From NCBI GenBank assembly GCA_029261655.1, contig JAJDAY010000026.1:138362-202361 (forward strand): a stretch of 64,000 nt of DNA, given 5' to 3'. Numbering within the stretch: position 1 is the first letter of the stretch; each line of letters begins with the position of its first letter. Made by a program: the position numbers and the translations under genes. The DNA is from Nitrospinaceae bacterium. GTDB lineage: Bacteria > Nitrospinota > Nitrospinia > Nitrospinales > VA-1. Shown one piece after another: positions 8,690-63,949 of this stretch. The notes below the pieces were generated by a model. It made no database searches. It saw only the letters and a program-made list of their open reading frames with translations, and had not been told where the DNA came from.

Positions 8690-8722
8690 AAAAACGTACC
8701 CGTTCAGACGTAATGGTGGGGT

Positions 8723-10076: not shown

Positions 10077-10112
10077 GGAAGGATTATAATCAATATCAAT
10101 GAATAGAAAATT

Positions 10113-10400: not shown

Positions 10401-10430
10401 GCTGGGACGCTAACTTTGGAGGAATACATT

Positions 10431-11351: not shown

Positions 11352-11476
11352 TTGGCCATCCTACCACATCGAAAAATTGCCGGGCAATTCGCAAGTTTCC
11401 AGCGTAAGATAATACGTTTCTTTCATGTTAAAATCCTTTTTCCAACTAATCTTATTAATCTTTAGTCGCCGGGTTC

Positions 11477-43362: not shown

Positions 43363-43432
43363 GAAACCTTCGCGGCAAAAATACGGACTCTGGTTTTAAA
43401 CACGGCTTTTATTCAAATTATCGGGTGATAGC

Positions 43433-43891
43433 ATGAATCGAACTCTTGTGAAGAAAAGAATCAAATGGTTCACAGTTTTCATAATGATTCTGGTCTGGCC
43501 TGCCCACTTGCTGGCAATGGAACCCCAGCAGTGCCCGCAACCAAGGTTCACAAAAAAGGCGCCTGAAAAAATCTATGACCTGATGAACCCGGTTGAATCA
43601 ACAACCGCAAACTTAAAAAAAGGCAAGATGCTGTATCAGACCAGAGCAAAACCCATGCCCTGCAAGCTCTGTCATGGAACCAGCGGGGATGGCAGTGGAC
43701 CTATGGCCGGGGGATTCACCCCTCCGCCAAGAAATTTCACTTGCGCGGAAACGATCAATGGAGTTTCTGATGGACAACTGTTCTGGATCATTAAAAATGG
43801 TTCTCCAGGAACAGGAATGCCTGCGTACAAATCTTTGCGGGACGAACAAATCTGGCAGATTCTCCTTTATGTGAGACAACTGGCTCAGTGA
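43433..43891 (+). CDS. mono-haem c-type cytochrome (class I-like)
   Basis: Signal peptide and a CKLCH motif. Domain paralogous to the preceding cytochrome. Confidence 0.8.
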   Translation: MNRTLVKKRIKWFTVFIMILVWPAHLLAMEPQQCPQPRFTKKAPEKIYDLMNPVESTTANLKKGKMLYQTRAKPMPCKLCHGTSGDGSGPMAGGFTPPPRNFTCAETINGVSDGQLFWIIKNGSPGTGMPAYKSLRDEQIWQILLYVRQLAQ

Positions 43892-43939
43892 TATATTTAC
43901 AGGAAGAATTGAATCACAATATAGCGTGAGAGGTAGATC

Positions 43940-45217: not shown

Positions 45218-45248
45218 CAACTAACAGGTTTCTAAAAAGGAAAAACTC

Positions 45249-46736
45249 ATGGGCAATTACTTTCCAGTGAAATCATCTCAGAATACAGCTATGAAACCGC
45301 CATCAACGAATTTTTTGAATGCCGGAAATTCTTCGTTAAAGCTTAAAACGACATTTCAATTTTGTTTCTTTTTTATGGTTCTATTCATTTGGTCCTGTGT
45401 CGGAGCATGGGCCGCCAATGATGAAAGCACCAGGAATCTAATAGAGAACCAATGTTCCAGTTGTCATAAGTTTGAAGGAAAACACGAGTCCAAATTCAAT
45501 TTAAAAGGCCCCGATCTCATGTGGGCGGGAAACAAATATCAGCGCCCGTGGTTGATCCGCTGGTTGACCGGAAAAGAAGAAAACCTTTATCCCAATGGAT
45601 TCCGGTGGGATATCTCCAGAGACCAGATAAAACATCCTGTTCTTTCGGAAGCCGTGGCCAACGACGTGGCCGATTATTTTGAAAAACATTTTCTTGATTC
45701 CAGAATAAAAAAGAGTTTTGTCGATCTTTCAACTTTCACAGAACAGGAGTCCCAGTTTGGGGCTGCAATTTTCAAGGAATTTTCCTGCCTGGGATGCCAT
45801 CAGATCAAAGAGGACGGTAAAAAAATTGGCGGACCCATCAGCGCTAATCTTTACGATTCGGGAAATCGATACAATTTGGATTGGTGGTCCAAGTTCGCGG
45901 AAAACCCGCAGAATTTTACTCCGCACAGTGGTGAATATCTTGCCGACCTCAGCATGCTGGGAGCGCGATACATCATCGGCTATTTAATGACTTTGGGTGT
46001 TGAGGATTTTAAATATTTTGAACCGTGGAAAGCAGAGCCATTTCAAAAAGCCGATGTCAAACGCGGAGCTACGGTTTACCGCGAGTATTGCGTTCAATGT
46101 CATGGACCACAAGGGGGCGGCGATGGTCCGGGAGCCTCTGGACTGGAACCGAAACCCGCAGTGCACGCGAAAATGGACCTCAATGAATTTCCAGAAGATT
46201 ATCTTTACAATCTGGTTTATTACGGCGGAAAAACGGTTGGCAAATCCCCAAACATGCCCGACTGGGGAATGACCATCGGAGAGCAGGGTGTGGCCGATGT
46301 CATCGCTTATATGCAAGAAACCTTCAAAACCGGTGAAGCGGTATCAGACGATCCAGGAAAGAAGGCCCAGGGAGACTGTCCACAAAAACGCAACACCAAA
46401 ACGGTTTCCTTTAAATACAGCAACAGGAAAAATCCCTTGGAACCCACACCCGCCAACCTGAAAGCGGGAGAAGCTCTGTATCAGAAAACGGCCAAACCCA
46501 TGGCTTGCAAGCTCTGTCATGGGAAACTGGGCGATGGCAAAGGTCCCGGAGGGGCGGGCGTCAAACCCGCACCTCGGAACTTCACCTGTCAGGCGACCAT
46601 GCAGGAAATATCCGACGGACAAATGTTCGGCGTCATCAAGGCCGGTTCTCCCGGTACAGCAATGCCTGCTTTCAAAAATCTCAAGGACAAAGAAGTGTGG
46701 CAACTGATTCTTTATATTCGGAGCTTCTCAAAATGA
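45249..46736 (+). CDS. tetrahaem c-type cytochrome (four class-I-like domains)
   Basis: Signal/TM, then CSSCH, CLGCH, CVQCH and CKLCH. The last domain is paralogous to the two mono-haem cytochromes. Confidence 0.8.
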   Translation: MGNYFPVKSSQNTAMKPPSTNFLNAGNSSLKLKTTFQFCFFFMVLFIWSCVGAWAANDESTRNLIENQCSSCHKFEGKHESKFNLKGPDLMWAGNKYQRPWLIRWLTGKEENLYPNGFRWDISRDQIKHPVLSEAVANDVADYFEKHFLDSRIKKSFVDLSTFTEQESQFGAAIFKEFSCLGCHQIKEDGKKIGGPISANLYDSGNRYNLDWWSKFAENPQNFTPHSGEYLADLSMLGARYIIGYLMTLGVEDFKYFEPWKAEPFQKADVKRGATVYREYCVQCHGPQGGGDGPGASGLEPKPAVHAKMDLNEFPEDYLYNLVYYGGKTVGKSPNMPDWGMTIGEQGVADVIAYMQETFKTGEAVSDDPGKKAQGDCPQKRNTKTVSFKYSNRKNPLEPTPANLKAGEALYQKTAKPMACKLCHGKLGDGKGPGGAGVKPAPRNFTCQATMQEISDGQMFGVIKAGSPGTAMPAFKNLKDKEVWQLILYIRSFSK

Positions 46737-51775: not shown

Positions 51776-53926
51776 TCAAAAGAACGCTCGTGCTCCGAGT
51801 GAAAAGAAATAGTTGGTGGATTTTTGCGAATCGCCAATTACCGTTTCATTGATCCATTCCCTCCCGCCTTCCAACTCAAATCGGAGCCATCGTTTCCAAC
51901 GGTAATCCAGTCTCACCAGCGGTCGGATGTTGACCCGGTCTCCATCGTCATTTTTATTTTTACGATAATCAATTCGTACTCTGGGGTTGATCCGTAAATC
52001 GCGGGTTATGGGAAACCGCAAGTTTAAGTCGGCAGAATAGCTGTCAACGTTTTGCAGGTCTGAATAACGCAGTCCAAATATTGCAATGTCGTTCTCCATA
52101 AAAAGACTACTGCCTATCAATTGGCTACTATAGAAAAACTCCGCTCCGGTGCTGGGCAATGCAGGGACTCCTCCTGAAGCGGGAGTTCCGGATAGTTCGG
52201 ATACGGAAAATTCCCCGTTTAATTGAAACTGTTCATTTAACTCCTGAGTCACGCTGAATATCATGGATCGACTCTTAGCGGTTCGGTCCTTAGCCAATTG
52301 CCGAACCTCCTCTTCACTCAATGTTCTCAACAAATCGGAAATATTACTCACTCCCTGTTGGCCTTGCAACGCGTTGCTTGTGGTTAGAATCGGACTTTTT
52401 CTATAGTCCAAAGTAAGACGCCAACGTGTTTTTACAGGAAAAACATAATCCCCTGAAAAAATAAACAAGTTCAATTCCTTGAAAGAAACATCGTAATCAA
52501 CAAGAGTCAAAAATGACCGTTGGGGATGAAAATAACGAGTCTCTCCTCCCACCGCCTGACGATCCGTTATCCCATCAACATCCTGATTGATTCCATAGAT
52601 GTTAAAATTCCAGTACTTGGCAAATGTACCGAGGTCTAAACTCATTCCATAAAAACGTTTGTTTATGTCCAACGGCTCCACTCTAGTGGATTGAACCGGA
52701 ACGCCTGCAACGCCATTTATTTTAACTTTGGAATTGATTCCATAACTTAGCAAACCTCCATCATATCTTCCAAGAACTCCCCCTGAGCTTTCAAATTGTC
52801 GACCAAACCTGCCAAATAATTTTCGTTTTAAATCTTTAACCTCAATATTCAGGGTATTGACGGAGGCTTCGCCTTCATCACCATTTTCCCTAAAGTCCTG
52901 GTCATACCCTCCCACAAACTGGGTGCGGATCTCATATTTGTCAGATCGGGAACGCGTGCTGAAATCAAAATCAGAGCTTAGGTCAGAACGATTGATCCGG
53001 GACGCCCCCGTACTGTCCGAATCAGTTTCATCAAAACTGTAAAATTGCGAAAAACTGCCAAAAACCTGAGTATCCCAAACCGTTTCCTCAGGATCCCTGG
53101 AAATTTTTGCGCTACGTAATCTTTCTTTAGGCTTGTCTCCGGCAGTGAGCAATCCATTCAGTCTTTGTTTAACCCGGTCCGCACCCTCCCCTTTTGGATA
53201 TTTTTTTAAATATTTTTCATACTCAGCTTTCGCATGGGCCAATTGATTGTTTCTATCGCGTGCCAATCCAATTAATTCCTGAGCATCCTGAGAAAGATCT
53301 GATTCCGGACGACTCAAAATTTTTGTATACAACTGAATGGCGCGCGGGTAGTTTTCCGCCGTCATTTCCTTTTTGGCCTCTTTCATGGCCTCGATGAGTT
53401 TGGGGTCGGCCTTCGAGGGTTTGGCAAGAGGCAAGCCGGGTTCCTTTGGTTCTCGTACTTTTTTTTCTTCTTTGGGTTTGACGTCAGATTTTACGAAAAA
53501 AATCAGCGACCGGAGGTCCCCACTACTTTGCAAATTAAAATCCACTTTACGGGAAAACCTGAATACCAGGACAGGGAGTCTTGGGCTACTGCCGTCAAAT
53601 GTCATTTCTTTCAGAGGTACAGGAATAGAGCGATCCCAGCTCAAGGCCTCCCTGTCTTCAAACTGTTTCAATATTTCCGTGTCCTCCAACGTGACTCCGG
53701 AAATGGGGCTCATTTCAATGAGAACAGTCTCGGATGGCGTAGTGGGTCGATGTTTTACATAACGTAAAGGCAGAATAAAATTAACGCGTATTTCATAGCC
53801 CGTGGCCCGTGTCTCGATTTCGACGTTATCCACAATACGCGCCGAGACCTGTGAGGCACTGAACAACAAGGTCGCCACGCACAAAAATAAAGTAAAAACC
53901 GGTATGATTTTGTTTCTTAAAACCAC
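51776..53926 (-). CDS. outer-membrane protein: periplasmic N-domain + TPR-like linker + C-terminal beta-barrel
   Basis: Signal peptide (..SQVSA|R), Lys/Pro-rich linker, TPR-like helices, then about 450 aa of alternating amphipathic strands ending in ...YFFSLGARAFF (aromatic C-terminus typical of OM barrels). Last gene of the cytochrome operon. Confidence 0.7.
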   Translation of the reverse strand: MVLRNKIIPVFTLFLCVATLLFSASQVSARIVDNVEIETRATGYEIRVNFILPLRYVKHRPTTPSETVLIEMSPISGVTLEDTEILKQFEDREALSWDRSIPVPLKEMTFDGSSPRLPVLVFRFSRKVDFNLQSSGDLRSLIFFVKSDVKPKEEKKVREPKEPGLPLAKPSKADPKLIEAMKEAKKEMTAENYPRAIQLYTKILSRPESDLSQDAQELIGLARDRNNQLAHAKAEYEKYLKKYPKGEGADRVKQRLNGLLTAGDKPKERLRSAKISRDPEETVWDTQVFGSFSQFYSFDETDSDSTGASRINRSDLSSDFDFSTRSRSDKYEIRTQFVGGYDQDFRENGDEGEASVNTLNIEVKDLKRKLFGRFGRQFESSGGVLGRYDGGLLSYGINSKVKINGVAGVPVQSTRVEPLDINKRFYGMSLDLGTFAKYWNFNIYGINQDVDGITDRQAVGGETRYFHPQRSFLTLVDYDVSFKELNLFIFSGDYVFPVKTRWRLTLDYRKSPILTTSNALQGQQGVSNISDLLRTLSEEEVRQLAKDRTAKSRSMIFSVTQELNEQFQLNGEFSVSELSGTPASGGVPALPSTGAEFFYSSQLIGSSLFMENDIAIFGLRYSDLQNVDSYSADLNLRFPITRDLRINPRVRIDYRKNKNDDGDRVNIRPLVRLDYRWKRWLRFELEGGREWINETVIGDSQKSTNYFFSLGARAFF

Positions 53927-53994
53927 AATACCCCTGAGACGAATTTTCTATTTCCTGTCGCGAATTAAAAAAGATTATTGCGAAAATAAACCAA

Positions 53995-56625
53995 TCAAAA
54001 ACCTCCGCCACTAGGTCGATGCTCAGGGCCATTACGAGTTTTACTGATGCCGCCGTTATTGTTAAGTATGTGGCATGACCCCGCGCAATCCCTCAATTCG
54101 CTGACGGTGTATTTACGATCCGGGTTCTCAGACTTTTTATGAGGATCCGTTTTGTAATCATTTGCGTGGCAACCGGCGCAATCGGGCTTGAACCCTGCAG
54201 AGGTATAAGTTGGAATTTGATTGTTACTCTTATGACAATCGAGACAACCCACACTGGATCTGTGATCTCCCGGATAATTCGGTGACGAATGCCTGAAGTC
54301 GATTGGCGTAAATCGATTGGTGTTGTGGCATTCATCGCATTGCACATTCGTCACAAAATGGTTGCCCGGTTTGCCCGTTGCCGTGGTGCCGTTGTGACAG
54401 GAGGAACAACTCCCATTGACGGAAGCATGATCGAAATTGGCCGGACTCCAGGCCAAAGTGGTATGGCAGTCATCGCATTGTGCAGAGGTCTGAACGTGGG
54501 TCGGGTGTTTTCCCGTTGCCGTAGTCCCATTATGACAACTGGAACAGGTTCCCGTCACACCGCTGTGGTCGAAATTGACATTCGTCCAACTACTGGTGAC
54601 ATGACAGTCGTCGCACAAATTGTTGGTAGAAATATGATTTTGCGATTTACCCCGCGCTGTTGTTCCATTGTGGCAGTTGAAACAAGTCCCCACAACGGAG
54701 GCGTGATCGACCCGCGTCACCGGGCTCCAGCGCGTGGTGACATGGCAGTCGTCGCAGGTGTTGGCGGTATTGATGTGCGTGCTGTTCTTGCCCGTAGCGG
54801 TTGTTCCATTATGACAACTCGCGCAGTTTCCCGTCACACTGCTGTGGTCAAACCGGGCTCCCGACCAGCTTGAGGTGGTATGACAATCGTCACAGGTGTT
54901 TGCACTCTGAATATGATTGTTGCCTTTGCCTTGCGCGGTCGATCCATTGTGGCAGTTGAAACAAGTCCCAACAACGGAGGCGTGATCGACCCGTGTCACC
55001 GGGCTCCAGCGCGTGGTGACATGACAGTCGTCGCAGGTATTGGCCGTATTGATGTGCGTGCTGTTCTTGCCCGTAGCGGTTGTGCCATTGTGGCAACTCG
55101 CGCAGTTTCCGGTCACACTGCTGTGGTCGAAATTGACATTCGTCCAACCACTCGTGGTATGACAATCGTCACAGGTGTTTGCACTCTGAATATGATTGTT
55201 GCCTTTGCCCTGTGCGGTCGATCCGTTGTGACAGCTGGAACAGGCACCAACAACGGAGGCGTGATCGACCCGTGTCACCGGGCTCCAGCGCGTGGTGACA
55301 TGACAGTCGTCGCAGGTGTTGGCCGTATTGATGTGAGTGCTATTTTTCCCGGTCGCGGTTGTGCCATTATGACAACTCGCGCAGGTTTGGGTGATGCCCG
55401 TGTGATCGAAAGTAGCGGCGGCCCAACTGCTGGTGATATGACAGTTGTCGCACGGCGCGTTGGTCTGCAGGTGATTCGGCGATTTGCCGCGTCCCGCCCC
55501 GCCGGTCACGTGACAGCTGGCGCAGGTGCCCTGCACCGACAAGTGATCCACACGGGTGGCCGGGGTGAACGTGCTGGTGTTGTGACAGTTGTCGCAGGTA
55601 TTGTCGGTGCGCATGTGGTTCGGTGATTTCGCCGTTCCCGCTCCGCCGGGGGTGTGACAGCTCACGCAGGTTTGGGTGATGCCGCTGTGGTCAAAAGTAG
55701 CGACGGCCCAACTGTTGGTGATATGACAGTTGTCGCACGGCGCGTTGGTCTGTAAGTGGTTCGGCGATTTGCCTTGTGCTGTTATTCCATTGTGACAGCT
55801 CACGCAGTTTCCTGTCACACTGTTGTGGTCAAATTTGGCTCCGGACCAGGTTGCTGTGGTATGGCAAGTATCGCAGGTGTTGGGGCTGACGATATGTTGG
55901 GTCCCCTTGCCTTGTGCCATTTTTCCATTATGGCAACTGGAGCAGGTTCCCATGACCGCGTCATGATCCACTCTAACGACGCTTGACCAGGTGCCGCTGT
56001 CGTGGCAGGACTCGCATGTTTTAGTGGTCAGGGGGTGATTGACTGACATGGGTGAGGCCGCTATCTGGCCACCAAGAGTATGGCATGAAGAACAGGTTTT
56101 TGGAGTCCCTGCGAAAACACCGCGTACATGACAACTTTCACATTCAACTTTTGCATGCGCGCCGTCCAAAGGGAATCCGGATGAAAGATGATCAAACTCT
56201 GAAGGTTCTGTCCAATTTTTTTCATCGTAGGTTTTTTCCTGAACCAGTGGATTTTTCTCCTTGAGAGGATCACTGCCTGGTTGAATATTTTCTTCCTCCG
56301 GCGCAGTTTTTATTAAGGCTTTTTCGTCATCACTTTTTCCAAAGAAAAAATCTAAAATCCCCGCAGTGCGTATTATTTTTTCTTTTTGGCGGACTTGAGG
56401 GTTTTGCTCAATTGCGCCAATAGAGGCATCCTCTGAAAATGAAAAATGCGATGGCGTCGAAGCCAATGAACTCAGGGGCAAGACAAGTGTAATCGCCAAT
56501 ATCCAAAACGTTAGAAGACTTTTAAACACGATCAAGCGTTTATGGGGTACCGTGTATTCAAGTCTGACGGGTCTATCGCCAACCTTGAAGGATTTAAATT
56601 TACGACAAACCATCTCGCTTTTCAT
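53995..56625 (-). CDS. giant multihaem c-type cytochrome (29 CxxCH + 1 Cx3CH), paired-CXXCH repeat type
   Basis: 876 aa with a signal/TM anchor. 29 CxxCH motifs were counted by eye in about 90-aa modules (..CASCHNG..H..T.NTCDDCH..), plus CAGSCH. ATGA overlap with the upstream cytochrome gene. Confidence 0.85.
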   Translation of the reverse strand: MKSEMVCRKFKSFKVGDRPVRLEYTVPHKRLIVFKSLLTFWILAITLVLPLSSLASTPSHFSFSEDASIGAIEQNPQVRQKEKIIRTAGILDFFFGKSDDEKALIKTAPEEENIQPGSDPLKEKNPLVQEKTYDEKNWTEPSEFDHLSSGFPLDGAHAKVECESCHVRGVFAGTPKTCSSCHTLGGQIAASPMSVNHPLTTKTCESCHDSGTWSSVVRVDHDAVMGTCSSCHNGKMAQGKGTQHIVSPNTCDTCHTTATWSGAKFDHNSVTGNCVSCHNGITAQGKSPNHLQTNAPCDNCHITNSWAVATFDHSGITQTCVSCHTPGGAGTAKSPNHMRTDNTCDNCHNTSTFTPATRVDHLSVQGTCASCHVTGGAGRGKSPNHLQTNAPCDNCHITSSWAAATFDHTGITQTCASCHNGTTATGKNSTHINTANTCDDCHVTTRWSPVTRVDHASVVGACSSCHNGSTAQGKGNNHIQSANTCDDCHTTSGWTNVNFDHSSVTGNCASCHNGTTATGKNSTHINTANTCDDCHVTTRWSPVTRVDHASVVGTCFNCHNGSTAQGKGNNHIQSANTCDDCHTTSSWSGARFDHSSVTGNCASCHNGTTATGKNSTHINTANTCDDCHVTTRWSPVTRVDHASVVGTCFNCHNGTTARGKSQNHISTNNLCDDCHVTSSWTNVNFDHSGVTGTCSSCHNGTTATGKHPTHVQTSAQCDDCHTTLAWSPANFDHASVNGSCSSCHNGTTATGKPGNHFVTNVQCDECHNTNRFTPIDFRHSSPNYPGDHRSSVGCLDCHKSNNQIPTYTSAGFKPDCAGCHANDYKTDPHKKSENPDRKYTVSELRDCAGSCHILNNNGGISKTRNGPEHRPSGGGF
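54598..55434. repeat. three tandem near-identical ~279-bp repeats inside the 29-haem cytochrome gene (plus a second duplicated block at about 55400-55490 and 55690-55780)
   Basis: ggtatgacaatcgtcacaggtgtttgcactctgaatatgattgttgcctttgcc recurs at 54877 and 55156 (period 279 nt = 93 aa). Flanking copies are about 90% identical. Antisense ORFs 54289..54873 and 54880..55626 show the same repeating peptide. Confidence 0.85.
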
Positions 56626-58613
56626 TGCAATAGCCCCCTGCGTTGCATGTTGACTTCTTTAAAAGATTCCGTTGTGTGGCATCTTTCGCACTGGTTTCCA
56701 AATCGACCCCTGTGAGTATCATCTCCCTGATGGCACTCTGAACAGTATTTTGGAAGTTCCATTTTCTTTTCCACTTCCTTGGTATGACATGCTTTGCACT
56801 CCAACCCGGAATGAGCCCCATCAAGTTTAAATTTTGACTGCGTGTTGTGGTCAAACTTCCACAGGTTCCAATGGTTGGGGTTATGACAGGTTTCACAGCG
56901 AGTGCCCTGGCGTTTCTTGTGAAAATCATCCTTGAGATGGCAATTGATGCAATCTGCCTTAACAGCGTTGAATTCCATGGAAGAGTGGCAATCGTCGCAA
57001 GTCGTAATTGCATGAATTCCGATAAGAGGAAAATTTGTCAGATCATGATCGAATTGAATATTTTTTCCCCAGGCGATATTGTTATGGCAACGGTCGCATT
57101 TTTCGCCTACCTGTCCTTTATGAACATCATCGGCTTTGTGACAGCCATAACAGGTTTTGGAAACCTGAATCTTTTTCTCGACCGGTTGGGTATGGCATAA
57201 GTGACAGTTCAAGTCTTTATGGTAACCACGCAAAAGAAACTTTGTTTGCCGGCTGTGATCAAATTGCCAGAGGTTCCATCCTTCCGATTTGTGACACAAA
57301 CCGCAATCGCTTCCCAGCCGTTTTTTATGCATGTCATCCTTGATATGGCAATCCACACACTTGGACCCCACATTTTTAAATTCAGCTGAAAGATGGCATT
57401 GTTCGCAGGTGGTTGCCACGTGCAATCCCATTAGAGGAAACAGGGTTTTATTGTGATCAAACTTAACGTTTTTTTTCCAGCTTTGCTGGTCATGGCATTT
57501 ATCGCACTTCTTTCCCTCCTGGCCTTTATGCACATCGTCAGCTTTATGACAGTCGTAGCACTTGGTTTTATTTTTTTCTTTTTCTGGAAGTCCTTTATGA
57601 CAATTCTGGCACTGGAGTTTCGTGTGCTTTCCGACCAGCTTAAATTTGGTGTCTTTATCGTGATCAAAATGCACTGTTTTCCATACTTTTGAGTTGTGGC
57701 AGGATTCGCATTTGGTGCCGAATCCGCCTTTATGCTCATCATCATTTTTATGGCAGGAAATGCAGGTTATCTTTAGTTTTTCTTTTTTGGGATTGCCTTT
57801 GTGGCAATCATTGCATTTCAACTTTGCGTGGCTGTCTTTCAATGGAAATTTGGTGTCCTTGGCGTGATCGAAGCTCGTTTTTTTCCATGTTTTTGGGGTG
57901 TGACATTTTTCACATTTTATTCCCAGATCTCCTCGGTGTACGTCGTTCAGAGCGTGACACCCGTTACAAGTTTTAAGCGTTTTTTTGTATCTCTCATCGG
58001 GGTGGCAACTGTTGCATTTGACTTCCCGATGCTTGCCTTCTAAAGCAAATTTGGTTTTCTTGTCGTGATCGAAAAAAGCTTTACTCCAGGCTGTTTCCTT
58101 GTGGCAGTCCTGGCATTTCTTTCCCAGTCTTTCAAGGTGCGGGTCATCGTTCTTATGGCAGAAATAGCAGTCCACAGGAGATTCCCGGTATTTCTTTTTA
58201 GAATCATGGCAGTCGTAACATTTGACCGAGGTGTGAGCCCCTTTTAAGGGGAAGTCTGTGAATTGGTGATCAAACGTGTCTTCATCCAGATGAATAATGT
58301 CCGCGCTACGTCCTTCATGATCGGTGTGACAGAGTTTGCATTTTTTTCTGGCGATATCTTTTTTCAGGCCGTGAAACCCCTTTTTATCAACGATGTCCTT
58401 ATTCACTTTCTTGTGGCAATCACGGCACAATTTATTTTGCGTCTTCTTGTCAAACAGGGAATGGCATTCAGTACACTCGGTTTCAATCTTGGCGTGTCCC
58501 TCAATTACGGGTCCTGGCATCACAAGATTTTCCAAAGGCCCTGCAACTGCCCGCGATGAAGAAAGCATTAAACAGACTCCTATTGCCAATCCAATTAAAA
58601 AACGAACATTCAC
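56622..58613 (-). CDS. 27-haem c-type cytochrome: nine tandem triheme cytochrome-c7-like modules
   Basis: 27 CxxCH motifs in a regular about 75-aa unit (F.H.....F.L.G.H....C..CH-(10-12)-C..CH..D.H...G..C..CH), as in PpcA/c7 polymers. Start placed at the GTG at 58613 (VNVRFLIGLAIGVCLMLSSSRAVA signal), because the longer ORF would overlap the upstream gene by 82 nt. Confidence 0.85.
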   Translation of the reverse strand: MNVRFLIGLAIGVCLMLSSSRAVAGPLENLVMPGPVIEGHAKIETECTECHSLFDKKTQNKLCRDCHKKVNKDIVDKKGFHGLKKDIARKKCKLCHTDHEGRSADIIHLDEDTFDHQFTDFPLKGAHTSVKCYDCHDSKKKYRESPVDCYFCHKNDDPHLERLGKKCQDCHKETAWSKAFFDHDKKTKFALEGKHREVKCNSCHPDERYKKTLKTCNGCHALNDVHRGDLGIKCEKCHTPKTWKKTSFDHAKDTKFPLKDSHAKLKCNDCHKGNPKKEKLKITCISCHKNDDEHKGGFGTKCESCHNSKVWKTVHFDHDKDTKFKLVGKHTKLQCQNCHKGLPEKEKNKTKCYDCHKADDVHKGQEGKKCDKCHDQQSWKKNVKFDHNKTLFPLMGLHVATTCEQCHLSAEFKNVGSKCVDCHIKDDMHKKRLGSDCGLCHKSEGWNLWQFDHSRQTKFLLRGYHKDLNCHLCHTQPVEKKIQVSKTCYGCHKADDVHKGQVGEKCDRCHNNIAWGKNIQFDHDLTNFPLIGIHAITTCDDCHSSMEFNAVKADCINCHLKDDFHKKRQGTRCETCHNPNHWNLWKFDHNTQSKFKLDGAHSGLECKACHTKEVEKKMELPKYCSECHQGDDTHRGRFGNQCERCHTTESFKEVNMQRRGLLQ

Positions 58614-58639
58614 ATCGATTCCAAAACTAAATTTCTGGT

Positions 58640-59593
58640 TTAATAAGCATGCACCGCTATCACATGAAATATGCCCGAACACAACAGCATGATCGCAAGC
58701 GGTAGATGAAACACATGCCAAAGAGAGAACATGCGCTCGTAGAAATTAAATTCTGCGACTTTACGAACATGGCGTAAAAGGGTCCAAACCCTGCGATTGG
58801 CTTCTTTTTGCATCCTTCGTTGATGAGAGGATTCCCCGTCACCGCGCTTTCTTCGGAAATTCAATTCAAGTGTCATCAAACGTCTGATTTGCCAAAATTC
58901 AACACGGGTCGTAATTCCCATAACAAGGACACTTGCCAAACTTTGAAAAAAACCTTGGCGGGAGTTCAACACTTTTTCTGAAAAAGTAAGCAGGTGTTTG
59001 GAAATCGGGGGAGAAAAATCCAACATTTCCGCCATCTCCCCTTTTTCGGTTTCGTATCTCTTCCGCAAATCGTTTAGAGTTGCGCGGCGCCCATACAAAC
59101 CATAGTGAATTCTTTTGTACATATACCGTCCAATCAGACCACTGGAAGCGACCACGATCATTGAAAAGAAAGCCACGTTGCTATTGAGTGATCCGAGTTG
59201 AAAATTTGCATGGAATAAAATGCATACAGGCCCAATAACCCCCATGATCATGTGAGTCTGGAACATTGTTTTTACGCTTCCAAAAGGCTCCATGAAACGG
59301 TATCGCTTACGCAATGGATAAATAACCAGAGCGAGCATCAGGACCGACCCTACGATCCCCAGGACATAACCCGTTCCTGATTCCGCAGTGAAATACTCGC
59401 GCGCGCGAATTTTCCATCCGGCGTAGATAACAAAGCAGACCGTAAAAAAGAAAAATACATTCGCGATTTTGGCTAAAAGTTTTTCTTCTCCCTTGGAGGA
59501 AACAGCCTTCACTTTTTTTTCATCCAGTGAGTTGGTGTCACCCAGAAAATCTGTTGACGTATTTCCAGTCTGGTGTTTTGACAATGCATTCAT
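58640..59593 (-). CDS. integral membrane protein, putative di-haem b-type cytochrome (quinol-interacting)
   Basis: 5 TM helices with His pairs inside TM3 (QTHMIMGVIGPVCILFH, spacing 14) and TM5 (WHVFH...FHVIAVH). Positioned between the Sel1/ANK protein and the multihaem cytochromes. Confidence 0.5.
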   Translation of the reverse strand: MNALSKHQTGNTSTDFLGDTNSLDEKKVKAVSSKGEEKLLAKIANVFFFFTVCFVIYAGWKIRAREYFTAESGTGYVLGIVGSVLMLALVIYPLRKRYRFMEPFGSVKTMFQTHMIMGVIGPVCILFHANFQLGSLNSNVAFFSMIVVASSGLIGRYMYKRIHYGLYGRRATLNDLRKRYETEKGEMAEMLDFSPPISKHLLTFSEKVLNSRQGFFQSLASVLVMGITTRVEFWQIRRLMTLELNFRRKRGDGESSHQRRMQKEANRRVWTLLRHVRKVAEFNFYERMFSLWHVFHLPLAIMLLCSGIFHVIAVHAY

Positions 59594-59604
59594 GATTGGA
59601 TCGG

Positions 59605-62496
59605 TTATTTGGTTGAAAAAATATCAGCCAGCCAGCTTTTAGAATTATTATGGTTTTCAAGAAGTGCCAAGATGTCGTTCCTGCCTTTAGGCACAATCAT
59701 ATGAGCCTGCTCACGATTATTATTCCTGAGATAGGGATCGGCTCCATTTGCCAACAAGATTTCGATGGTCTCCAGATGCCCTCCTGTCACAGCCATTAAT
59801 AAAGCGGTATTGCCGGCGATATTTTTTTCATTAACCTTTGATCCCTTGTTGATGAGCTGACGTACAAGAGCAGAATTTCCCAGGTCCGCGGCAAGCATGA
59901 GAGGGGTATTTCCGGTTTTGCTCTTTACAAAAATATCGGCTCCTGCCAAAACCAAACGCCGGGCAGTTGCCTCATGCCCTTTTGCAGTGGCCTGCAATAA
60001 TGGAGTGTTCCCATCGCGGTCTTTAAATTCCGTGGTTGTTTTTTTACCCAACAAAGTTTCAACGACCATCGTCTGGCCGGCGTCGGCAGCAAACCACAAC
60101 ACGTCACGCCCTTCCGAGTCCTGAGAATTCAAACGGGCGCCTTTATTGAGCAACGATTTCACCAAATCGATCTTTCCTGAATAGGATGCGAGCATCAACA
60201 CGGTAATTCCATCACCACGCTTCAGATTGGTATCAGCGCCGCGATCCAATAACAGTTGCGCCACCTGTTCATGAGAGTTCAGGGCGGCGTTGATCAATGG
60301 GCTGGCTCCATCACTTGATTGAGCATTGGGGTTTGCGCCCGCATTCAACAACTGTTCGACAACAGAAAGATGGCCCTTTTCAGCGGCCCAATGCAGGGGC
60401 GATTTTCCATCCGGTTGCGCCACCTTTGGGTCCGCCCCTTTGGATAATAAAGCGCGCGCAATTTCTTCATGGCCTTTCCAGGCGGCACGGCTGAGGGGCG
60501 TGTGCCCCTGGGGGTCGGTGAAATTCACGTTGTCGCCTCTGGAAAGCAAGGCGTTAACGACTTTGGTTTGCCCGCGCCAGGCGGCAGTCATTAATGGAGA
60601 CCAACCTTTAAAGGTAGCCTCCGGCGAAAGGTTTGCGAGAATACTTTTTGAACTGGAAGCAAACGGGGAGGAATTCTTATTTCTGCTTGTATCCAGAGTC
60701 GCGCCCCTGGCAAGGAGCGTTTGCAGAATGGGTTTATATCCTCTGACATGGGCGATCTGAGCCGCCGTCATATCCTTATGGTTCTTGATCTCAACGTCAG
60801 CGCCTTTTTCCAAAAGGACCCCCACAATGGTTTTGTTTCTTTTTTGCGTCGCCAATAATAAAGGTGTGTTTCCGTTTGGGTCTTGAGAGTTTAGATCTGC
60901 CCCCGCTTCCAGCAATTGGAAGATGGTGGAAGGGTCTCCCCTGTTCACCGCCATAAAAAGAGCGTTGTCTCCGTATTTATTGACCGCGTGAACATCCGCG
61001 CCCGCCTTAAGCAAAGTATTGATCACGTCCAGGCGATTTTCTTCCACCGCCAGTATCAGAGCGGTTCGCCCCGACGCTTCGCGCGCATTGATATTCACAC
61101 CCAGTTTGATCAAGGAACCCACCTCCTCCGCCAAACCCCGGCTTGCTGCCTGCAGTAAATTTTTCTCTGCGACGCCATTGATATTGGCTTTCAGCTTTTG
61201 ACGTTCTTCCTGTTCTTGCTCCAGCTTTGCCTTGGCGGTCAAATGACCTTGTTCAAATGCCGCCTGAAACCATTTCCTAGCCTTGCTCTGGCTCCGCTTC
61301 ACTCCCAACCCATTTTCAAACATGACTCCCAGGTTGTATTGAGCATTGGCATGGCCTTGAGACGCGGACATTTCCAGCCAACGAACTGCTTCTTTCTGAC
61401 TTTTTGGCAAACCCAGTCCCGACCGATATAAATTCGATAATTGAAATTGCGCTTCGGCATGTCCAGCCTTTGCAAGCGGTTTTATTAATTGAATCGCTTT
61501 AGAAAAGTCTTCATTGAGTACAGCGGTTTTGGAGGTTTGCAGTTGTTGCGTGGAATAAAGACTCTTTAAGATGAGTTTGTCTTGCTGAGATTTTGCGATT
61601 TGGATTGCGGTCTGGTCGTCGCTGTTTTTGATTTCTAAATCTGCTCCATGGTTCAGTAACGCCAGGACCAGTTTTGAATCATTTTTTTGAGTGGCCAGGA
61701 TCAAAGACGAGTTGCCATTTTTATCCTGAGCATTGGTATTTGCATTGGCGTTCAGAAGCCAGGTCACAACGGGAAGATGCCCTTTGCCAGCCGCGATCAA
61801 TAGAGCAGAATTGCCAAAATCGTCGATGGCATGTATATCCGCTCCTGCTTTCAACAGAGATTGTACAATTTCCAAATATCCCTGATCGGACGCCAGCATC
61901 AAGGGGGTCCGTCCTTTTTCATCCGTGACATTGACATTTATTTTTTTCTCGATGAGTTCCTTTATTTTTTTAATATCGCCAGTAAAGGAATGCCGTAGTA
62001 AATTCTTTTTATTGATAAGGACCGAATCGGTTTTGAAACGCTTCTGGATTTTCTCTTCCCTTTCCAGTTTGCGTTTCGCCATCACATGATCTTTTGCCGC
62101 CGCCGCGCGGAACCAATCCAACGCCTCCTGTTGGTTTTTCTCCACACCCCAGCCGTTTTCATACATGATTCCCATCGTGTACTGAGCGTCCAAATTGTCC
62201 TGTGCGGCGGCGCGATTCAGCCATTTGATGGCCTGCTCATAATCTCTGGGGACGCCTTTTCCTGAACGCAATAAACTGGCCAGTTGATACTGGGCTTCAG
62301 AATTCCCGTCCCTGGCCAAAGGCTCCAGCAACTCAGCGGCTCTGGAGAAATCTCTCACGCGGGCCGCGGCTTTGGCCGCATCCATGTCTCCGGCATGGCT
62401 GAGGGAAAAATTAAAAGCCCAGGATAAAATCAAAAAGCTCAGGTTTGCCAAAGCGATTATTGGGATTTTTGATTTCATTGAATATGAAAAGTTCAT
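59605..62496 (-). CDS. secreted Sel1-repeat + ankyrin-repeat protein with internally duplicated [3xSel1-4xANK] architecture
   Basis: Signal peptide. Two Sel1-like blocks (GDM.AAKAA...AQYQLASLLRSGKGVPRDYEQAIKWL; GHAEAQFQLSNLYRSGLGLPKSQKEAVRWL) each followed by ANK repeats (TPLMLAS..G..E.V..LL.AGAD...D..G.T.L), about 20 ANK repeats in total. Confidence 0.8.
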   Translation of the reverse strand: MNFSYSMKSKIPIIALANLSFLILSWAFNFSLSHAGDMDAAKAAARVRDFSRAAELLEPLARDGNSEAQYQLASLLRSGKGVPRDYEQAIKWLNRAAAQDNLDAQYTMGIMYENGWGVEKNQQEALDWFRAAAAKDHVMAKRKLEREEKIQKRFKTDSVLINKKNLLRHSFTGDIKKIKELIEKKINVNVTDEKGRTPLMLASDQGYLEIVQSLLKAGADIHAIDDFGNSALLIAAGKGHLPVVTWLLNANANTNAQDKNGNSSLILATQKNDSKLVLALLNHGADLEIKNSDDQTAIQIAKSQQDKLILKSLYSTQQLQTSKTAVLNEDFSKAIQLIKPLAKAGHAEAQFQLSNLYRSGLGLPKSQKEAVRWLEMSASQGHANAQYNLGVMFENGLGVKRSQSKARKWFQAAFEQGHLTAKAKLEQEQEERQKLKANINGVAEKNLLQAASRGLAEEVGSLIKLGVNINAREASGRTALILAVEENRLDVINTLLKAGADVHAVNKYGDNALFMAVNRGDPSTIFQLLEAGADLNSQDPNGNTPLLLATQKRNKTIVGVLLEKGADVEIKNHKDMTAAQIAHVRGYKPILQTLLARGATLDTSRNKNSSPFASSSKSILANLSPEATFKGWSPLMTAAWRGQTKVVNALLSRGDNVNFTDPQGHTPLSRAAWKGHEEIARALLSKGADPKVAQPDGKSPLHWAAEKGHLSVVEQLLNAGANPNAQSSDGASPLINAALNSHEQVAQLLLDRGADTNLKRGDGITVLMLASYSGKIDLVKSLLNKGARLNSQDSEGRDVLWFAADAGQTMVVETLLGKKTTTEFKDRDGNTPLLQATAKGHEATARRLVLAGADIFVKSKTGNTPLMLAADLGNSALVRQLINKGSKVNEKNIAGNTALLMAVTGGHLETIEILLANGADPYLRNNNREQAHMIVPKGRNDILALLENHNNSKSWLADIFSTK

Positions 62497-62499
62497 GGA

Positions 62500-63810
62500 T
62501 TATTCAGTCCCATGTTTGGTTTCAACCGTGATTCCTATTTCTTTAAGAAACGGTGTCGGGAGTATCCCGCCGGCGCACACGAGGATGGCGTCGTTACTGA
62601 TTTCCTGAACCTCGCCCGCGTTGTCGATTTTCACTTTGTCTTTTGTAATGGATTTGACGTTGGATTCCATCAATACATTCAATCTCCCTTCTTCATCCAT
62701 CCGAGCGACCGTATCCCGGTTTTTTTGTTTGGCGCGGGAAAAGGATTCACTGCGATAAGACAGCGTGACGGTTGTCCCCTTCTCCTCTGCAATGCTGGTC
62801 GCGGCTTCCAGAGCGCTGTCTCCCCCGCCGACCACCAAGACGTGCTGGCCCCTGTATTGTTCAGGGTCGATGAGGCGATAAACCACTTTGGAAAGGTCTT
62901 CTCCAGGGACGCCAAGTTTTCTGGGAGTTCCCCGTCTGCCGATGGATAGTAAAACTCCCCTCGTTTTGTAGGTGGCACGCTGGGTTTTTACTTCAATGAA
63001 ATTTTCCCTGCGGGTCACGGACTCGACCCGTTCGGAATAATTGATTTTGACGTTTGTCTTTTTTTCAACATCTTCCCAAAATTCGAGCAGAGCTTCTTTG
63101 GTGGTTTCCTTGAATGTTGTTTTCCCGAACAGGGGAAGAATGACAGGGGAAGTCATGACGACTTTGCCGCGCGGGTAATGAGAAACGGTTCCGCCCAATG
63201 TTTCCTGTTCCAGGGTCACCGAACGAAGCTTGTGTTCCATCGCCGCTAAAGATGCGGAAAACCCCGCAGGTCCGGCACCGATGACCACCAGATCCAAAAG
63301 ATCTCCTTTACCAATACCCTCTAATTTACGAATGGAATCCACGGCCTGTTTGCCCTGAGTCACGGCGTTACGTATTAGCCCCATGCCGCCCAATTCACCG
63401 GCAATGAAAACTCCTGGAATATTTGTTTCAAAGCTGGGTTTGACCAAAGGGATGTCCACCCCTCGTTTTTCGGTACCAAAAACCAAAGTGATCGCTCCCA
63501 TAGGGCAGGAAACCTTGCAAGACCCGTGACCGATACAATGGGTGGGTCCAATCAACTCGGCCTTCCCCTGTATCATTCCTAATACATTTTTTTCCGGGCA
63601 GGCAGAAATACAGGCCTTGCACCCCACGCATTGAACGGGGTCAATTATGGGATGCAGTGAGGAGGGTTCTATCAATCCGGCTTCGCGTTCCTTGTCCCGA
63701 TGAGCCAGGCTTCGTATCTCCAACCTTTTTCGACGGGCCAAATACCAAACCCAGACCAAAAACGCCGGGACGAGATAAACTAAAGAACTTTGGAGGGTCA
63801 GTCGCATCAT
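62500..63810 (-). CDS. membrane-anchored 2x[4Fe-4S] ferredoxin-domain / FAD-NAD(P)-binding oxidoreductase (thioredoxin-reductase-like)
   Basis: N-terminal TM, CVGCKACISACP and CIGHGSCKVSCP clusters, FAD GxGxxG (VIGAGPAGFSASLAA) and an NAD(P) site (VLVVGGGDSALEAA). 3 nt upstream of the Sel1/ANK gene. ORF open to 63864, with alternative starts at 63810 or 63807. Confidence 0.75.
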   Translation of the reverse strand: MMRLTLQSSLVYLVPAFLVWVWYLARRKRLEIRSLAHRDKEREAGLIEPSSLHPIIDPVQCVGCKACISACPEKNVLGMIQGKAELIGPTHCIGHGSCKVSCPMGAITLVFGTEKRGVDIPLVKPSFETNIPGVFIAGELGGMGLIRNAVTQGKQAVDSIRKLEGIGKGDLLDLVVIGAGPAGFSASLAAMEHKLRSVTLEQETLGGTVSHYPRGKVVMTSPVILPLFGKTTFKETTKEALLEFWEDVEKKTNVKINYSERVESVTRRENFIEVKTQRATYKTRGVLLSIGRRGTPRKLGVPGEDLSKVVYRLIDPEQYRGQHVLVVGGGDSALEAATSIAEEKGTTVTLSYRSESFSRAKQKNRDTVARMDEEGRLNVLMESNVKSITKDKVKIDNAGEVQEISNDAILVCAGGILPTPFLKEIGITVETKHGTE

Positions 63811-63949
63811 TGAAAATGTGATTTTTGGGAGGAAAATTGTTTGATTTGCTCGATAGTTAAGCAAATTTCAAGCCAGTATAAAAAACACGATATAAACCAA
63901 TGCTTTAAAAAATATCGAAATATAAATTTTTAGGATTACCAGTAACAAG

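Follow-up and report, generated by a model that had tools for sequence, protein, structure and literature searches.

A PCC3-type porin–cytochrome gene cluster accompanied by Fe-S/FAD oxidoreductase and Sel1/ankyrin genes in a Nitrospinaceae genome

The window analyzed here is a 64,000-nucleotide stretch of a Nitrospinaceae contig (JAJDAY010000026.1, assembly GCA_029261655.1). We identified six intact, tightly packed ORFs on the minus strand between positions 51776 and 63864 (Table 1), which recovers in full the six-gene set proposed in an earlier note on this DNA. The gene for the Fe-S/FAD oxidoreductase (FdFAD) probably starts at ATG 63807 and encodes 435 aa instead of the 454-aa ORF, because a 100%-identical database protein (P0241) and most homologues have this length. 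For the 27-haem cytochrome gene, GTG 58613 is the probable start; it yields a signal peptide and 663 aa, instead of the 699-aa ORF. With these starts, the genes are separated by gaps of 3, 11, 26 and 68 nt, and there is one 4-nt overlap. The genes had been described as partly overlapping; the overlap between the stop of the 27-haem gene (MHC27) and the start of the 29-haem gene (MHC29) stands, but the 27-haem gene does not overlap its upstream neighbor if it starts at GTG 58613. Terminator-like and promoter-like sites are no more common than in shuffled sequence, and nothing was found against the co-transcription that the earlier note had assumed. Pfam agrees with the domain content suggested there (Fer4 and Pyr_redox, Sel1 and ankyrin, C7 and c3 repeats in both cytochromes, and a weak YfiO/TPR match in the 716-aa ORF).

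Table 1. Genes and repeat located in the window, with the evidence for each.
Feature	Position	Strand	Basis or remark
Outer-membrane protein, 716 aa, signal peptide	51776..53926	-	AMIN-like, TPR, barrel
Second cytochrome, presumed outer/extracellular	53995..56625	-	29 CXXCH + 1 CX3CH, 876 aa
Tandem DNA repeat within 29-haem gene	54512..55384	.	279 bp, 3.1 copies, 85% matches
Periplasmic 27-haem cytochrome c	56622..58613	-	27 CXXCH; ORF open to 58721
PCC3-type inner-membrane protein (IMP), 317 aa	58640..59593	-	motifs, AF2 model
Secreted (periplasmic) Sel1 + ankyrin solenoid, 963 aa	59605..62496	-	Pfam, signal-peptide-like N-terminus
FdFAD, membrane-anchored Fe-S/FAD oxidoreductase	62500..63807	-	ORF open to 63864

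The 56 haem motifs in two adjacent ORFs, set in regular repeats of 67-68 and 46-47 aa, are far beyond chance, and the motif counts bear out the 27 and 29/30 haems claimed previously. The other four proteins contain no haem motifs. No catalytic domains, which the earlier note had named as counting against a conduit, were found in either cytochrome with Pfam and NCBIfam-level profiles. The 27-haem cytochrome consists of nine c7-like tri-haem units (24.6 aa per haem, about 15% Lys), and Pfam Cytochrome_C7 matches it in eight stretches. The equivalent protein in related loci mostly has 21 haems, otherwise 18, 24, 27 or 33.

The second cytochrome is rich in T, S, G and N and is built of di-haem repeats, the shorter of the two repeat types. 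Its Pfam matches are Cytochrome_C7, c3, Paired_CXXCH_1 and MtrC/MtrF domain II/IV, and it scores 143 bits against the DmsE/MtrA-family model (cut-off 192). A signal peptide is present and a lipobox is absent; an outer location is predicted. The number of haems in its relatives ranges from 9 to 49. The tandem repeat within the gene, detected with Tandem Repeats Finder, is also visible in the protein, and one copy encodes a 93-aa four-haem unit.

The IMP is predicted to have five transmembrane (TM) helices and two b haems. The AF2 model (pLDDT 71) has five long TM helices, and TM4 and TM5 are separated by a helical, K/R-rich insert of about 110 aa on the predicted cytoplasmic side. Two His pairs, each HX13H (H114/H128 on TM3 and H296/H310 on TM5), are invariant in 81 sequences, as are H163 and W292; H293 is present in 80/81 and H315 in 79/81. 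The SGxxG motif (SGLIG; S151, G152, G155) is invariant in a 15-sequence alignment (A1). The TM5 motif reads WHVFH-X13-H, and the TM3 motif has M at the position where the family consensus is W. There were no matches in Pfam, NCBIfam or PDB, and the fold search returned only generic helical bundles. Relatives of the IMP were found in 507 species-representative genomes from many phyla; thus, the cluster is common rather than rare.

In FdFAD, an N-terminal TM helix and the RRKR after it are joined to a ferredoxin domain of the 2x[4Fe-4S] type and a TrxR/YpdA-like FAD and NAD(P)H domain (Pfam Fer4_10 and Pyr_redox_3/2). By sequence, its fold class is that of flavoproteins with two dinucleotide-binding domains, and we infer that it uses NAD(P)H. 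The second Fe-S motif is C-x2-H-x2-C-x3-CP, with a His that is invariant in 69 homologues, which rules out a plain four-Cys motif. Also invariant in these homologues are C79, C85, C89, C110, H113 (the His of this motif), C116 and C120, along with GxGxxG, GGGDSA, and R371 and R377, the two Arg in the TrxR 2'-phosphate region. Seven of the eight Cys are inside the Fe-S motifs. Thus, there is no CxxC redox disulfide and, lacking a spare Cys pair, the protein is not a disulfide reductase. The N-terminal helix followed by K/R is kept among homologues and no twin-arginine signal was found in FdFAD, so the domains should be cytoplasmic. The nearest NCBIfam and PDB matches (YpdA, TrxR and TrxR-type FNR) all fall under family cut-offs. 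Assignment to YpdA was rejected (TIGR04018, 160 bits against a cut-off of 340), as was assignment to thioredoxin reductase (TIGR01292, 86 bits against 343, with no Cys pair outside the Fe-S motifs). FdFAD is the best-conserved component of the locus, at 54-71% identity across phyla. Database searches found no FdFAD–IMP fusion protein.

The Sel1/ankyrin protein consists of two Sel1x3/ANKx5 modules and, at the C-terminus, an ANK array (Pfam Sel1 in four stretches and Ank in 12). A cleavable-type signal-peptide-like N-terminus is present here and in 61 of 70 homologues. The length of the solenoid follows the haem number of the first cytochrome: about 511 aa for 18 haems, 663 for 21, 962 for 27 and 1254 for 33. 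Across these four states the solenoid gains about 150 aa per added tri-haem unit. Few independent lineages carry this relationship: the short form comes from Bradyrhizobium, the long forms from Nitrospinaceae. An exception is the relative L015, which has 27 haems but a short solenoid of 616 aa. The scaling appears to be new and fits the idea of a scaffold.

In the model of the 716-aa protein, an AMIN-like beta-sandwich occupies residues 32-145, a YbgF/BamD-like TPR region residues 175-261 and a 22-strand barrel residues 285-716. The closest folds are 22-strand barrels of a generic kind, with 22-strand receptors at the top and MtrB of the Mtr complex among the matches. The earlier note had raised the possibility of a PgaA/BcsC-like export porin, which would place the barrel, TPR and Sel1 proteins in polymer export (as in AlgK/AlgE, PgaA or BcsC) beside unrelated cytochromes; we consider this very improbable, since neither PgaA nor BcsC is among the top 60 fold matches, the conserved neighbors include no synthase, glycosyltransferase or polymer-modifying gene, barrel and cytochromes co-occur across phyla, and membership of that group calls for a 16-18-strand export barrel with TPR and polymer synthase genes.

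The earlier note held that no described conduit family fits this locus. This did not survive comparison with the literature: by their sequence features, the four core genes are a complete cluster of the PCC3 type, a known porin–cytochrome family whose conduit function is putative (He et al., 2017, Front Microbiol 8:1584, PMC5566968). Examples are Slit_1446-1449 and Slit_0867-0870 of Sideroxydans lithotrophicus ES-1; according to work on Gallionellaceae, the order in Slit_1446-1449 is IMP, periplasmic multihaem cytochrome (MHC), extracellular MHC and porin, and the order here is identical. A PCC3 IMP has about 300 aa and five TM helices, with SGXXG on TM4 and a WX3HX13H motif on each of TM3 and TM5, a motif pattern that it shares with the PCC4 IMP (He et al., 2017). 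The 317-aa protein conforms, except that the W of the first WX3HX13H motif is M. PCC3 periplasmic cytochromes have about 21 haems in repeats of about 66 aa (21, 24 or 27 haems in Gallionellaceae), a series into which the 27 CXXCH and nine units of 67-68 aa fall. The extracellular cytochromes are described as low in complexity, T/S/A/G-rich and with many haems (He et al., 2017); the second cytochrome, predicted to be extracellular, has 29+1 motifs and 37.6% T+S+A+G. The PCC3 porin of Leptothrix cholodnii is reported to have 22 strands, as does the barrel model here. The likeness to the Sideroxydans ES-1 and Leptothrix proteins is by published description. Homology to the family is provided by Bradyrhizobium sp. 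STM 3843, which is listed as a PCC3 carrier (He et al., 2017): its IMP (locus L062) is 41% identical to ours over residues 31-317 (E 3e-64), and the gene is followed by genes for 18-haem and at least 14-haem cytochromes.

The core order is the same in 40 of 42 related loci, and the only recurrent extra neighbors are cytochrome c maturation genes. This order of inner-membrane protein, haem wire, second large cytochrome and barrel, kept in dozens of genomes, supports the structural reading offered earlier (inner-membrane entry or exit, a wire long enough for the periplasm, a second cytochrome and an outer-membrane barrel). Unlike the proteobacterial hosts of the published PCC3 definition, the host here belongs to Nitrospinota. 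The definition also covers only four genes, whereas this locus and 55 of 58 related ones also carry attached Fe-S/FAD and Sel1/ankyrin genes.

These 58 loci, in which the upstream side of the IMP gene extends for 5 kb or more, are the informative ones among the best 80 of 507, a sample distinct from the Gallionellaceae and Leptothrix clusters that defined PCC3. A homologue of FdFAD adjoins the IMP gene in 56 of the 58, as does a Sel1/ANK homologue, with the partner genes co-directional in 20 loci, divergent in 34 and downstream in two. The partner-bearing loci belong to Nitrospinaceae, Nitrospirota, Omnitrophota, Planctomycetes, Thermodesulfobacteriota, and Alpha- and Gammaproteobacteria. Reverse sampling from three FdFAD homologues gave two that adjoin an IMP-sized gene and a cytochrome gene; the contig of the third, from Thiogranum longum, ends in a truncated upstream gene. 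The PCC3 literature that could be searched makes no mention of either partner, and their near-constant company with the core seems to be unreported. The earlier note had singled out both proteins as odd parts of the locus; this holds for the two, and the remaining four genes are known.

We favor, as the probable reading, a split route resembling that of NOX enzymes, in which electrons would pass from NAD(P)H through FAD, Fe-S clusters, b haems, periplasmic wire and barrel to the outer cytochrome. The same judgment includes FdFAD and the Sel1/ankyrin protein as parts of the system, although both are outside its published definition. FdFAD, tethered to the membrane by one helix, would exchange electrons with NAD(P)H via FAD in the cytoplasm and relay them to the cytoplasmic-side b haem of the five-helix IMP by way of two Fe-S clusters, of which the outer has a His ligand. 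The two b haems could then carry electrons across the inner membrane to the lysine-rich c7 polymer, which may be long enough to span the periplasm. The outer membrane would be crossed inside the 22-strand barrel, whose AMIN-like and TPR domains would fasten it to the cell wall, and the route would end at the surface in the T/S/G-rich 29/30-haem cytochrome. The solenoid may run beside the wire in the periplasm and scaffold or sheathe it. Taken together, the system would resemble a NOX or ferric reductase enzyme split into separate proteins and stretched across the full envelope. Net flow most likely runs out of the cell, with NAD(P)H as the donor and an oxidant outside as the acceptor (e.g., Fe(III) or Mn(IV) minerals, humics or a partner cell). 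Because no sequence or profile relation of the IMP to ferric-reductase domains, MsrQ or cytochrome b561 was detected, the analogy with NOX rests on the motifs and the adjacent flavoprotein.

Energetics count for the opposite direction. As in redox loops, energy is conserved when electrons move inward via two b haems. Sending them outward from NAD(P)H dissipates membrane potential, a cost to a chemolithoautotroph that weighs against the outward model. In the published PCC3 model, an extracellular donor (e.g., Fe(II) or reduced minerals) supplies electrons that move inward through the IMP to the quinone pool; FdFAD and the solenoid would then be accessory, for example in maturation, regulation or repair, off the electron path. 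He et al. (2017) based this model on the HX13H motifs and on the presence of PCC3 in iron oxidizers. PCC3 is common in Sideroxydans (Gallionellaceae work), and in Sideroxydans CL21 the IMP gene of one copy is up in cells able to oxidize iron. However, PCC3 is not induced but down-regulated on Fe(II) in ES-1, a result silent on outward flow, and PCC3 proteins are unresponsive to magnetite. Most of the carriers found are not known iron oxidizers (among the best 80 of 507: Nitrospinaceae, Emcibacter, Bradyrhizobium, Thalassolituus and Methylococcaceae). If the IMP were coupled only to quinones, it would also be hard to explain why a membrane-tethered Fe-S flavoprotein of the NAD(P)H type is so highly conserved and almost always linked to it, a linkage that points to a cytoplasmic partner. 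We regard the inward model as a rather unlikely alternative.

A third reading is that the giant cytochromes form a periplasmic electron store, a capacitor charged from the inner membrane, with no crossing of the outer membrane and with the barrel in some other role, such as anchoring or transport. Capacitor behavior was suggested earlier for large PCC3 cytochromes (Gallionellaceae work), and the location of the second cytochrome is a prediction for a protein with a signal peptide and no lipobox. We consider a store improbable.

Among other known systems, the PCC4 IMP has the same motif pattern, and in subgroup II of PCC4 the gene immediately upstream of the IMP gene encodes an Fe-S protein. 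PCC4 differs in having no extracellular cytochrome and only small periplasmic cytochromes, and its IMP family is unrelated in sequence to that of PCC3 (He et al., 2017). The MtrCAB, MtoAB and PioAB systems combine a decahaem MtrA/DmsE-family cytochrome with a 26-strand MtrB/PioB-family barrel. Neither is present here, where no protein has a family-level match to MtrA, MtrB or MtrC, the cytochromes have 27 and 29 haems rather than 10 and 10, the barrel has 22 strands and is fused to AMIN-like and TPR domains, and a b-type inner-membrane protein takes the place of tetrahaem CymA. OmbB–OmaB–OmcB and Ext of Geobacter share the module of porin, periplasmic cytochrome and outer cytochrome. No homology to their proteins was detected, although homologues of the 716-aa barrel were found in Desulfuromonas and Desulfuromusa MAGs. 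In the Geobacter systems the proteins carry 8 to 12 haems, the outer cytochromes are lipoproteins, and electrons come from the quinol oxidases ImcH and CbcL.

NOX/ferric reductase (FRD) and MsrQ with Fre have two b haems, as predicted for the IMP, and two His pairs 13 residues apart, as seen in it; also common to them and the model proposed here are like-oriented helices, a cytoplasmic flavin/NAD(P)H feed and quinone-independent electron export. The FRD domain (PF01794) is a six-helix domain whose His pairs sit on TM3 and TM5, and its flavin partner is a fused, FNR-like domain. The IMP does not belong to it: Pfam Ferric_reduct reached E 1.8 in one of 15 members, and hhalign to E. coli MsrQ gave a probability below 1%. 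The IMP has five helices, and its flavoprotein is separate, TrxR-like and equipped with two Fe-S clusters. The 27-haem cytochrome has no sequence match in PDB at E <= 0.001, but it resembles the polymeric c7 of Geobacter (the GSU1996-type 'nanowire' dodecahaem) in its tandem tri-haem units and elongated chain. The Geobacter protein has four such units, whereas the cytochrome described here has nine, and its gene shares an operon with those of a barrel and a membrane protein.

We identified six intact ORFs on the minus strand between 51776 and 63864 of the window, which bears out the earlier note's claim of a six-gene cytochrome operon. CXXCH motifs number 27 in MHC27 (a c7-polymer cytochrome) and 29, plus one CX3CH, in MHC29 (the second cytochrome), with none in the other four: a membrane-anchored Fe-S/FAD oxidoreductase (FdFAD), a secreted Sel1 and ankyrin solenoid (Sel1/ANK), a 317-aa inner-membrane protein (IMP) and a 716-aa barrel protein. 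With revised starts, the junctions comprise four gaps (3, 11, 26 and 68 nt) and an overlap of 4 nt, that of the MHC27 stop with the MHC29 start. Judged from this tight spacing, co-transcription of the six genes is likely; promoter-like and terminator-like sites across the operon occur at chance frequency only and speak neither for nor against it. The FdFAD start is favoured because the resulting length equals that of a 100%-identical database protein and of most homologues. For MHC27, only the GTG start gives a signal peptide (a normal one), and it removes the apparent overlap with the IMP gene, into the end of which the longest ORF (from TTG 58721) runs. This gene is thus prone to mis-annotation. 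In the automated annotation of one related locus (L001), the equivalent gene begins at an internal Met and lacks a signal peptide.

Coordinates of the operon genes, the repeat within the MHC29 gene, and cytochrome c maturation genes at related loci
Feature	Sequence	Coordinates	Strand	Description
Barrel protein	window	51776-53926	minus	beta-sandwich, five TPR-like helices, 22-strand barrel; model pLDDT 83
MHC29	window	53995-56625	minus	46-47-aa di-haem repeats; T/S/G/N-rich
Tandem repeat in MHC29 gene	window	54512-55384		279 bp, 3.1 copies, 85% matches
MHC27	window	56622-58613	minus	most likely start GTG 58613
IMP	window	58640-59593	minus	five long TM helices and a ~110-aa helical basic insert between TM4 and TM5 (structure model)
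Sel1/ANK	window	59605-62496	minus	signal peptide, two Sel1x3/ANKx5 modules, then ~10 further ankyrin repeats
FdFAD	window	62500-63807	minus	most likely start ATG 63807, 435 aa
Cytochrome c maturation genes	L084	15422-21305
Cytochrome c maturation genes	L003	2976-3965
Cytochrome c maturation genes	L017	12746-14695
Cytochrome c maturation genes	L007	5840-6367

Downstream of the barrel gene are a convergent ORF and then housekeeping genes, for an RsmD-like methyltransferase, MnmA and inositol monophosphatase. The remainder of the window is ordinary chromosome (including an ATP synthase operon, UvrA, MetRS and HemB), and the window ends ~190 bp upstream of the likely FdFAD start. About 5 kb from the operon, three genes for c-type cytochromes (42673-46736; 229, 152 and 495 aa; Cytochrome_CBB3/Cytochrom_C) surround a GAF-domain histidine kinase gene (43940-45217), a possible redox-sensing module. 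Elsewhere, one 463-aa ORF (28813-30204) joins complete TatD-type DNase and radical SAM domains, an unusual fusion, and the sole match of a 1112-aa ORF (35017-38355) is DUF4175.

Based on its sequence features, the cluster is a member of PCC3, a porin–cytochrome cluster family that is already known and widespread. PCC3 was defined by four genes, encoding a porin, an extracellular multihaem cytochrome (MHC), an MHC of the periplasm and a hypothetical inner-membrane protein (He et al., 2017; PMC5566968). The extracellular MHC has a median of 34 haems and is T/S/A/G-rich and built of repeats, the periplasmic MHC has a median of 21 haems, and the inner-membrane protein (~300 aa, five helices) carries SGXXG on TM4 and WX3HX13H on TM3 and TM5 (PMC5566968). 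Later work describes 21, 24 or 27 haems in the periplasmic PCC3 cytochromes of Gallionellaceae, the order inner-membrane protein, periplasmic cytochrome, extracellular cytochrome, porin at Slit_1446-1449, and, for Leptothrix, a porin with 22 transmembrane segments and periplasmic cytochrome repeats of ~66 aa. All of these published features occur in the window cluster (Sideroxydans and Leptothrix being compared by description only), with the sole exception that the Trp of the first WX3HX13H motif is replaced by Met. Direct sequence comparison established homology of the window IMP to that of Bradyrhizobium sp. STM 3843, a PCC3 carrier named by He et al. (PMC5566968), whose locus continues with genes for 18-haem and at least 14-haem cytochromes. 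Given the feature match and this homology, the earlier note's view that the parts correspond to no described conduit family is not supported: its reading as a porin–cytochrome conduit is supported, and the claim of a wholly new one falls, as the window encodes an ordinary PCC3. In papers up to 2025, PCC3 is still described as four genes of unverified function.

Nine c7-like tri-haem units, each 67-68 aa long, make up MHC27, which has ~15% Lys and 24.6 aa per haem. A PDB sequence search found no match to MHC27 and a single marginal match to MHC29 (E 7e-4). Each copy of the repeat in the MHC29 gene encodes a 93-aa four-haem unit, which suggests that haem modules may have been gained or lost recently through recombination. 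This repeat fits the wide haem range of the equivalent gene in relatives.

One homologue of the barrel protein has a Pfam AMIN match, and many others have SPOR domains in its place. These matches, together with the modelled domains, suggest that the N-terminus may be periplasmic and cell-wall-binding, and the AMIN-like and SPOR N-termini appear to be alternative cell-wall-binding modules. The SPOR-bearing homologues (P0052-P0120), in which SPOR replaces the AMIN-like sandwich of the window protein, are named Desulfuromonas or Desulfuromusa where labelled.

No relatives of IMP were found in Pfam, NCBIfam or the PDB. Two pairs of His, each 13 residues apart (H114/H128 and H296/H310), are invariant in 81 sequences, as are H163 and W292, and H293 and H315 are nearly so; SGxxG is invariant in a 15-sequence alignment. 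By the positive-inside rule, the insert and H114/H296 would be cytoplasmic and H128/H310 periplasmic. Known b-haem families were rejected as candidates, none being related by Pfam (E <= 10), PDB profile search or hhalign against E. coli MsrQ and YodB. The N-terminal extensions of long IMP homologues (e.g., P0383, P0376) are TPR, SPOR or unassigned, and never FdFAD or ANK.

FdFAD comprises an N-terminal TM helix, RRKR, a two-cluster ferredoxin domain and a thioredoxin-reductase/YpdA-like FAD and NAD(P)H domain. Of the eight Cys, seven lie within Fe-S motifs, so a redox-active disulfide is absent. GxGxxG and GGGDSA are invariant, and so are two Arg of the region in which thioredoxin reductase (TrxR) binds the NADPH 2'-phosphate and, in 69 homologues, the His of the second Fe-S motif (C-x2-H-x2-C-x3-CP). 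His-ligated [4Fe-4S] clusters are typically at the protein surface and serve as the electron exit (e.g., the distal cluster of [NiFe] hydrogenases). By analogy, this His is a lead to a surface electron-exit cluster in FdFAD. Each of the top 120 homologues of FdFAD is about 435 aa long, and neither these nor the long IMP homologues revealed FdFAD–IMP or ANK–IMP gene fusions.

Homologues of IMP and of the barrel protein number roughly a thousand or more each, and an IMP profile search against 1.84 billion representatives gave 3147 clusters at E <= 0.001. Scanning one genome per species identified 507 loci with IMP relatives. Among the best 80 of these, Nitrospinaceae are nearest (44-51% identity), by which the host is probably Nitrospinota-like, and the others are from Nitrospirota, Leptospirillia, Omnitrophota, Planctomycetes, Thermodesulfobacteriota and many Alpha- and Gammaproteobacteria, with three Bradyrhizobium isolates among the proteobacteria. 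The gene after IMP encodes a cytochrome, mostly of 21 haems and otherwise of 18, 24, 27 or 33, followed by a second cytochrome gene (9-49 haems) and then the barrel gene, which was found in 40 of the 42 loci whose downstream sequence was long enough. Some loci (L006, L027, L054, L075) have three multihaem cytochrome genes between IMP and barrel rather than two (21+27+11 haems in L006; 21+12+49 in L027).

Partner genes were counted in the 58 loci, among the best 80 of 507, with >= 5 kb upstream of the IMP gene. An FdFAD homologue adjoins the IMP gene in 56 of the 58, a Sel1/ANK homologue likewise in 56, and both in 55. In 20 loci the layout is co-directional, like that of the window; in 34 it is divergent, and in 2 the genes follow the barrel. 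In two gammaproteobacterial loci (L039, L049), the FdFAD–Sel1/ANK pair is past the barrel gene on the opposite strand, still within the cluster. Unbiased clustering of all ORFs in related loci recovered a conserved set of exactly these components. For two of three FdFAD homologues on longer contigs, from an FdFAD-based search, the neighbours are a cytochrome gene and one of IMP size; the remaining contig (isolate Thiogranum longum) ends within a truncated upstream gene. A frequent extra neighbour is cytochrome c maturation (table), and CcmB-H genes, including those for a CcmH/CycH TPR protein, a CcmG-like thioredoxin and CcmF, are beside PCC3 in roughly 10-22 related loci. In L003, the closest relative among the best 80 of 507, a CcmH-like gene is immediately upstream of FdFAD; by this parallel, one may also be present just past the window end.

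That FdFAD and Sel1/ANK are tightly linked to PCC3 appears not to have been reported previously in the literature searched. The main text of He et al. (PMC5566968) has no mention of ankyrin, Sel1, tetratricopeptide, TPR, ferredoxin, FAD or pyridine nucleotide, and in full-text searches nothing relevant turned up for PCC3 together with ankyrin or with Nitrospina, or for multihaem cytochromes combined with ankyrin and extracellular electron transfer. Sel1/ANK length also scales with the haem number of the first cytochrome: ~511 aa with 18 haems (three Bradyrhizobium loci), ~663 aa with 21 (48 loci), ~962 aa with 27 (3 of 4 loci, the window included) and 1254 aa with 33 (L003). This is ~150 aa per tri-haem unit, with few independent lineages sampled. 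The rule is broken by L015, a Nitrospinaceae locus (bin1391) whose reduced cluster (around 8560-12991) comprises IMP, a cytochrome of 27 haems and a Sel1/ANK shortened to 616 aa; no FdFAD or barrel gene was detected within 10 kb.

The best-supported reading is a trans-envelope conduit whose inner-membrane module would be a split counterpart of NADPH oxidase (NOX) or ferric reductase. We predict that electrons would start at the cytoplasmic NAD(P)H/FAD/2x[4Fe-4S] protein FdFAD, pass to two b haems of IMP and then to the periplasmic MHC27, and go through the barrel to MHC29 as the outer cytochrome, with the Sel1/ANK solenoid lying along this wire in the periplasm as a scaffold. Data back the cofactor motifs, the side of the membrane predicted for each protein, the conservation and the linkage; we infer all protein–protein contacts, the use of NAD(P)H, the surface location of MHC29 and the direction of flow. 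Outward flow is favoured on bioenergetic grounds, as delivery inward to NAD(P)+ would be thermodynamically uphill. Moving electrons outward from NAD(P)H dissipates the membrane potential; the benefit could be reduction of mineral Fe/Mn, acquisition of iron, or balancing of redox state when oxygen is limiting.

The chief alternative is the model already published, in which electrons from Fe(II) or minerals pass inward to quinones via IMP. This is possible. It leaves the flavoprotein linkage unexplained, and the expression data from Sideroxydans ES-1 give it no support. Inward delivery to NAD(P)+ is rejected by thermodynamic inference, being uphill in redox potential and opposed by the membrane potential. 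Finally, the PgaA/BcsC-like polysaccharide exporter that the earlier note had named as an alternative to a conduit is rejected on the strand number, the fold ranking and the neighbourhood.

PCC3 is among the most widespread predicted extracellular electron-transfer systems and has the largest cytochromes known in such clusters, and since 2017 it has had neither a verified function nor an established link to cytoplasmic metabolism. What is added here is two conserved partner genes and the length scaling, which provide testable hypotheses on that link. One lead is an Fe-S flavoprotein of NAD(P)H type as a dedicated partner at the inner membrane, which, if confirmed, would alter the assumed direction and quinone coupling; the other is a periplasmic solenoid with a length that tracks the haem wire. 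The family reaches well past Proteobacteria (to Nitrospinaceae, Nitrospirota, Omnitrophota, Planctomycetes and Thermodesulfobacteriota), which bears on how multihaem cytochromes in marine and groundwater metagenomes are read.

A bolder and tentative reading, which we consider somewhat doubtful as a whole, takes PCC3 as a six-component machine rather than an iron oxidase of four genes that is linked to quinones. In it, an NAD(P)H:Fe-S flavoprotein tethered to the membrane would supply electrons to di-haem b membrane proteins of a new family, giving quinone-independent, NOX-like electron export across the whole Gram-negative envelope. The Sel1/ankyrin solenoid would be a length-matched scaffold of the periplasmic haem wire (at the ratio of residues to tri-haem units found here), and the system would be found widely among aerobes and microaerophiles from many phyla, Nitrospinota among them. 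Its role would be redox balancing or the reduction of extracellular acceptors, Fe(III) or Mn(IV) for example, and not iron oxidation. No sequence, profile or fold relation was found between IMP and ferric reductase domain (FRD), MsrQ or b561 proteins, and the analogy of the window's inner-membrane module with NADPH oxidase and ferric reductase is one of function only.
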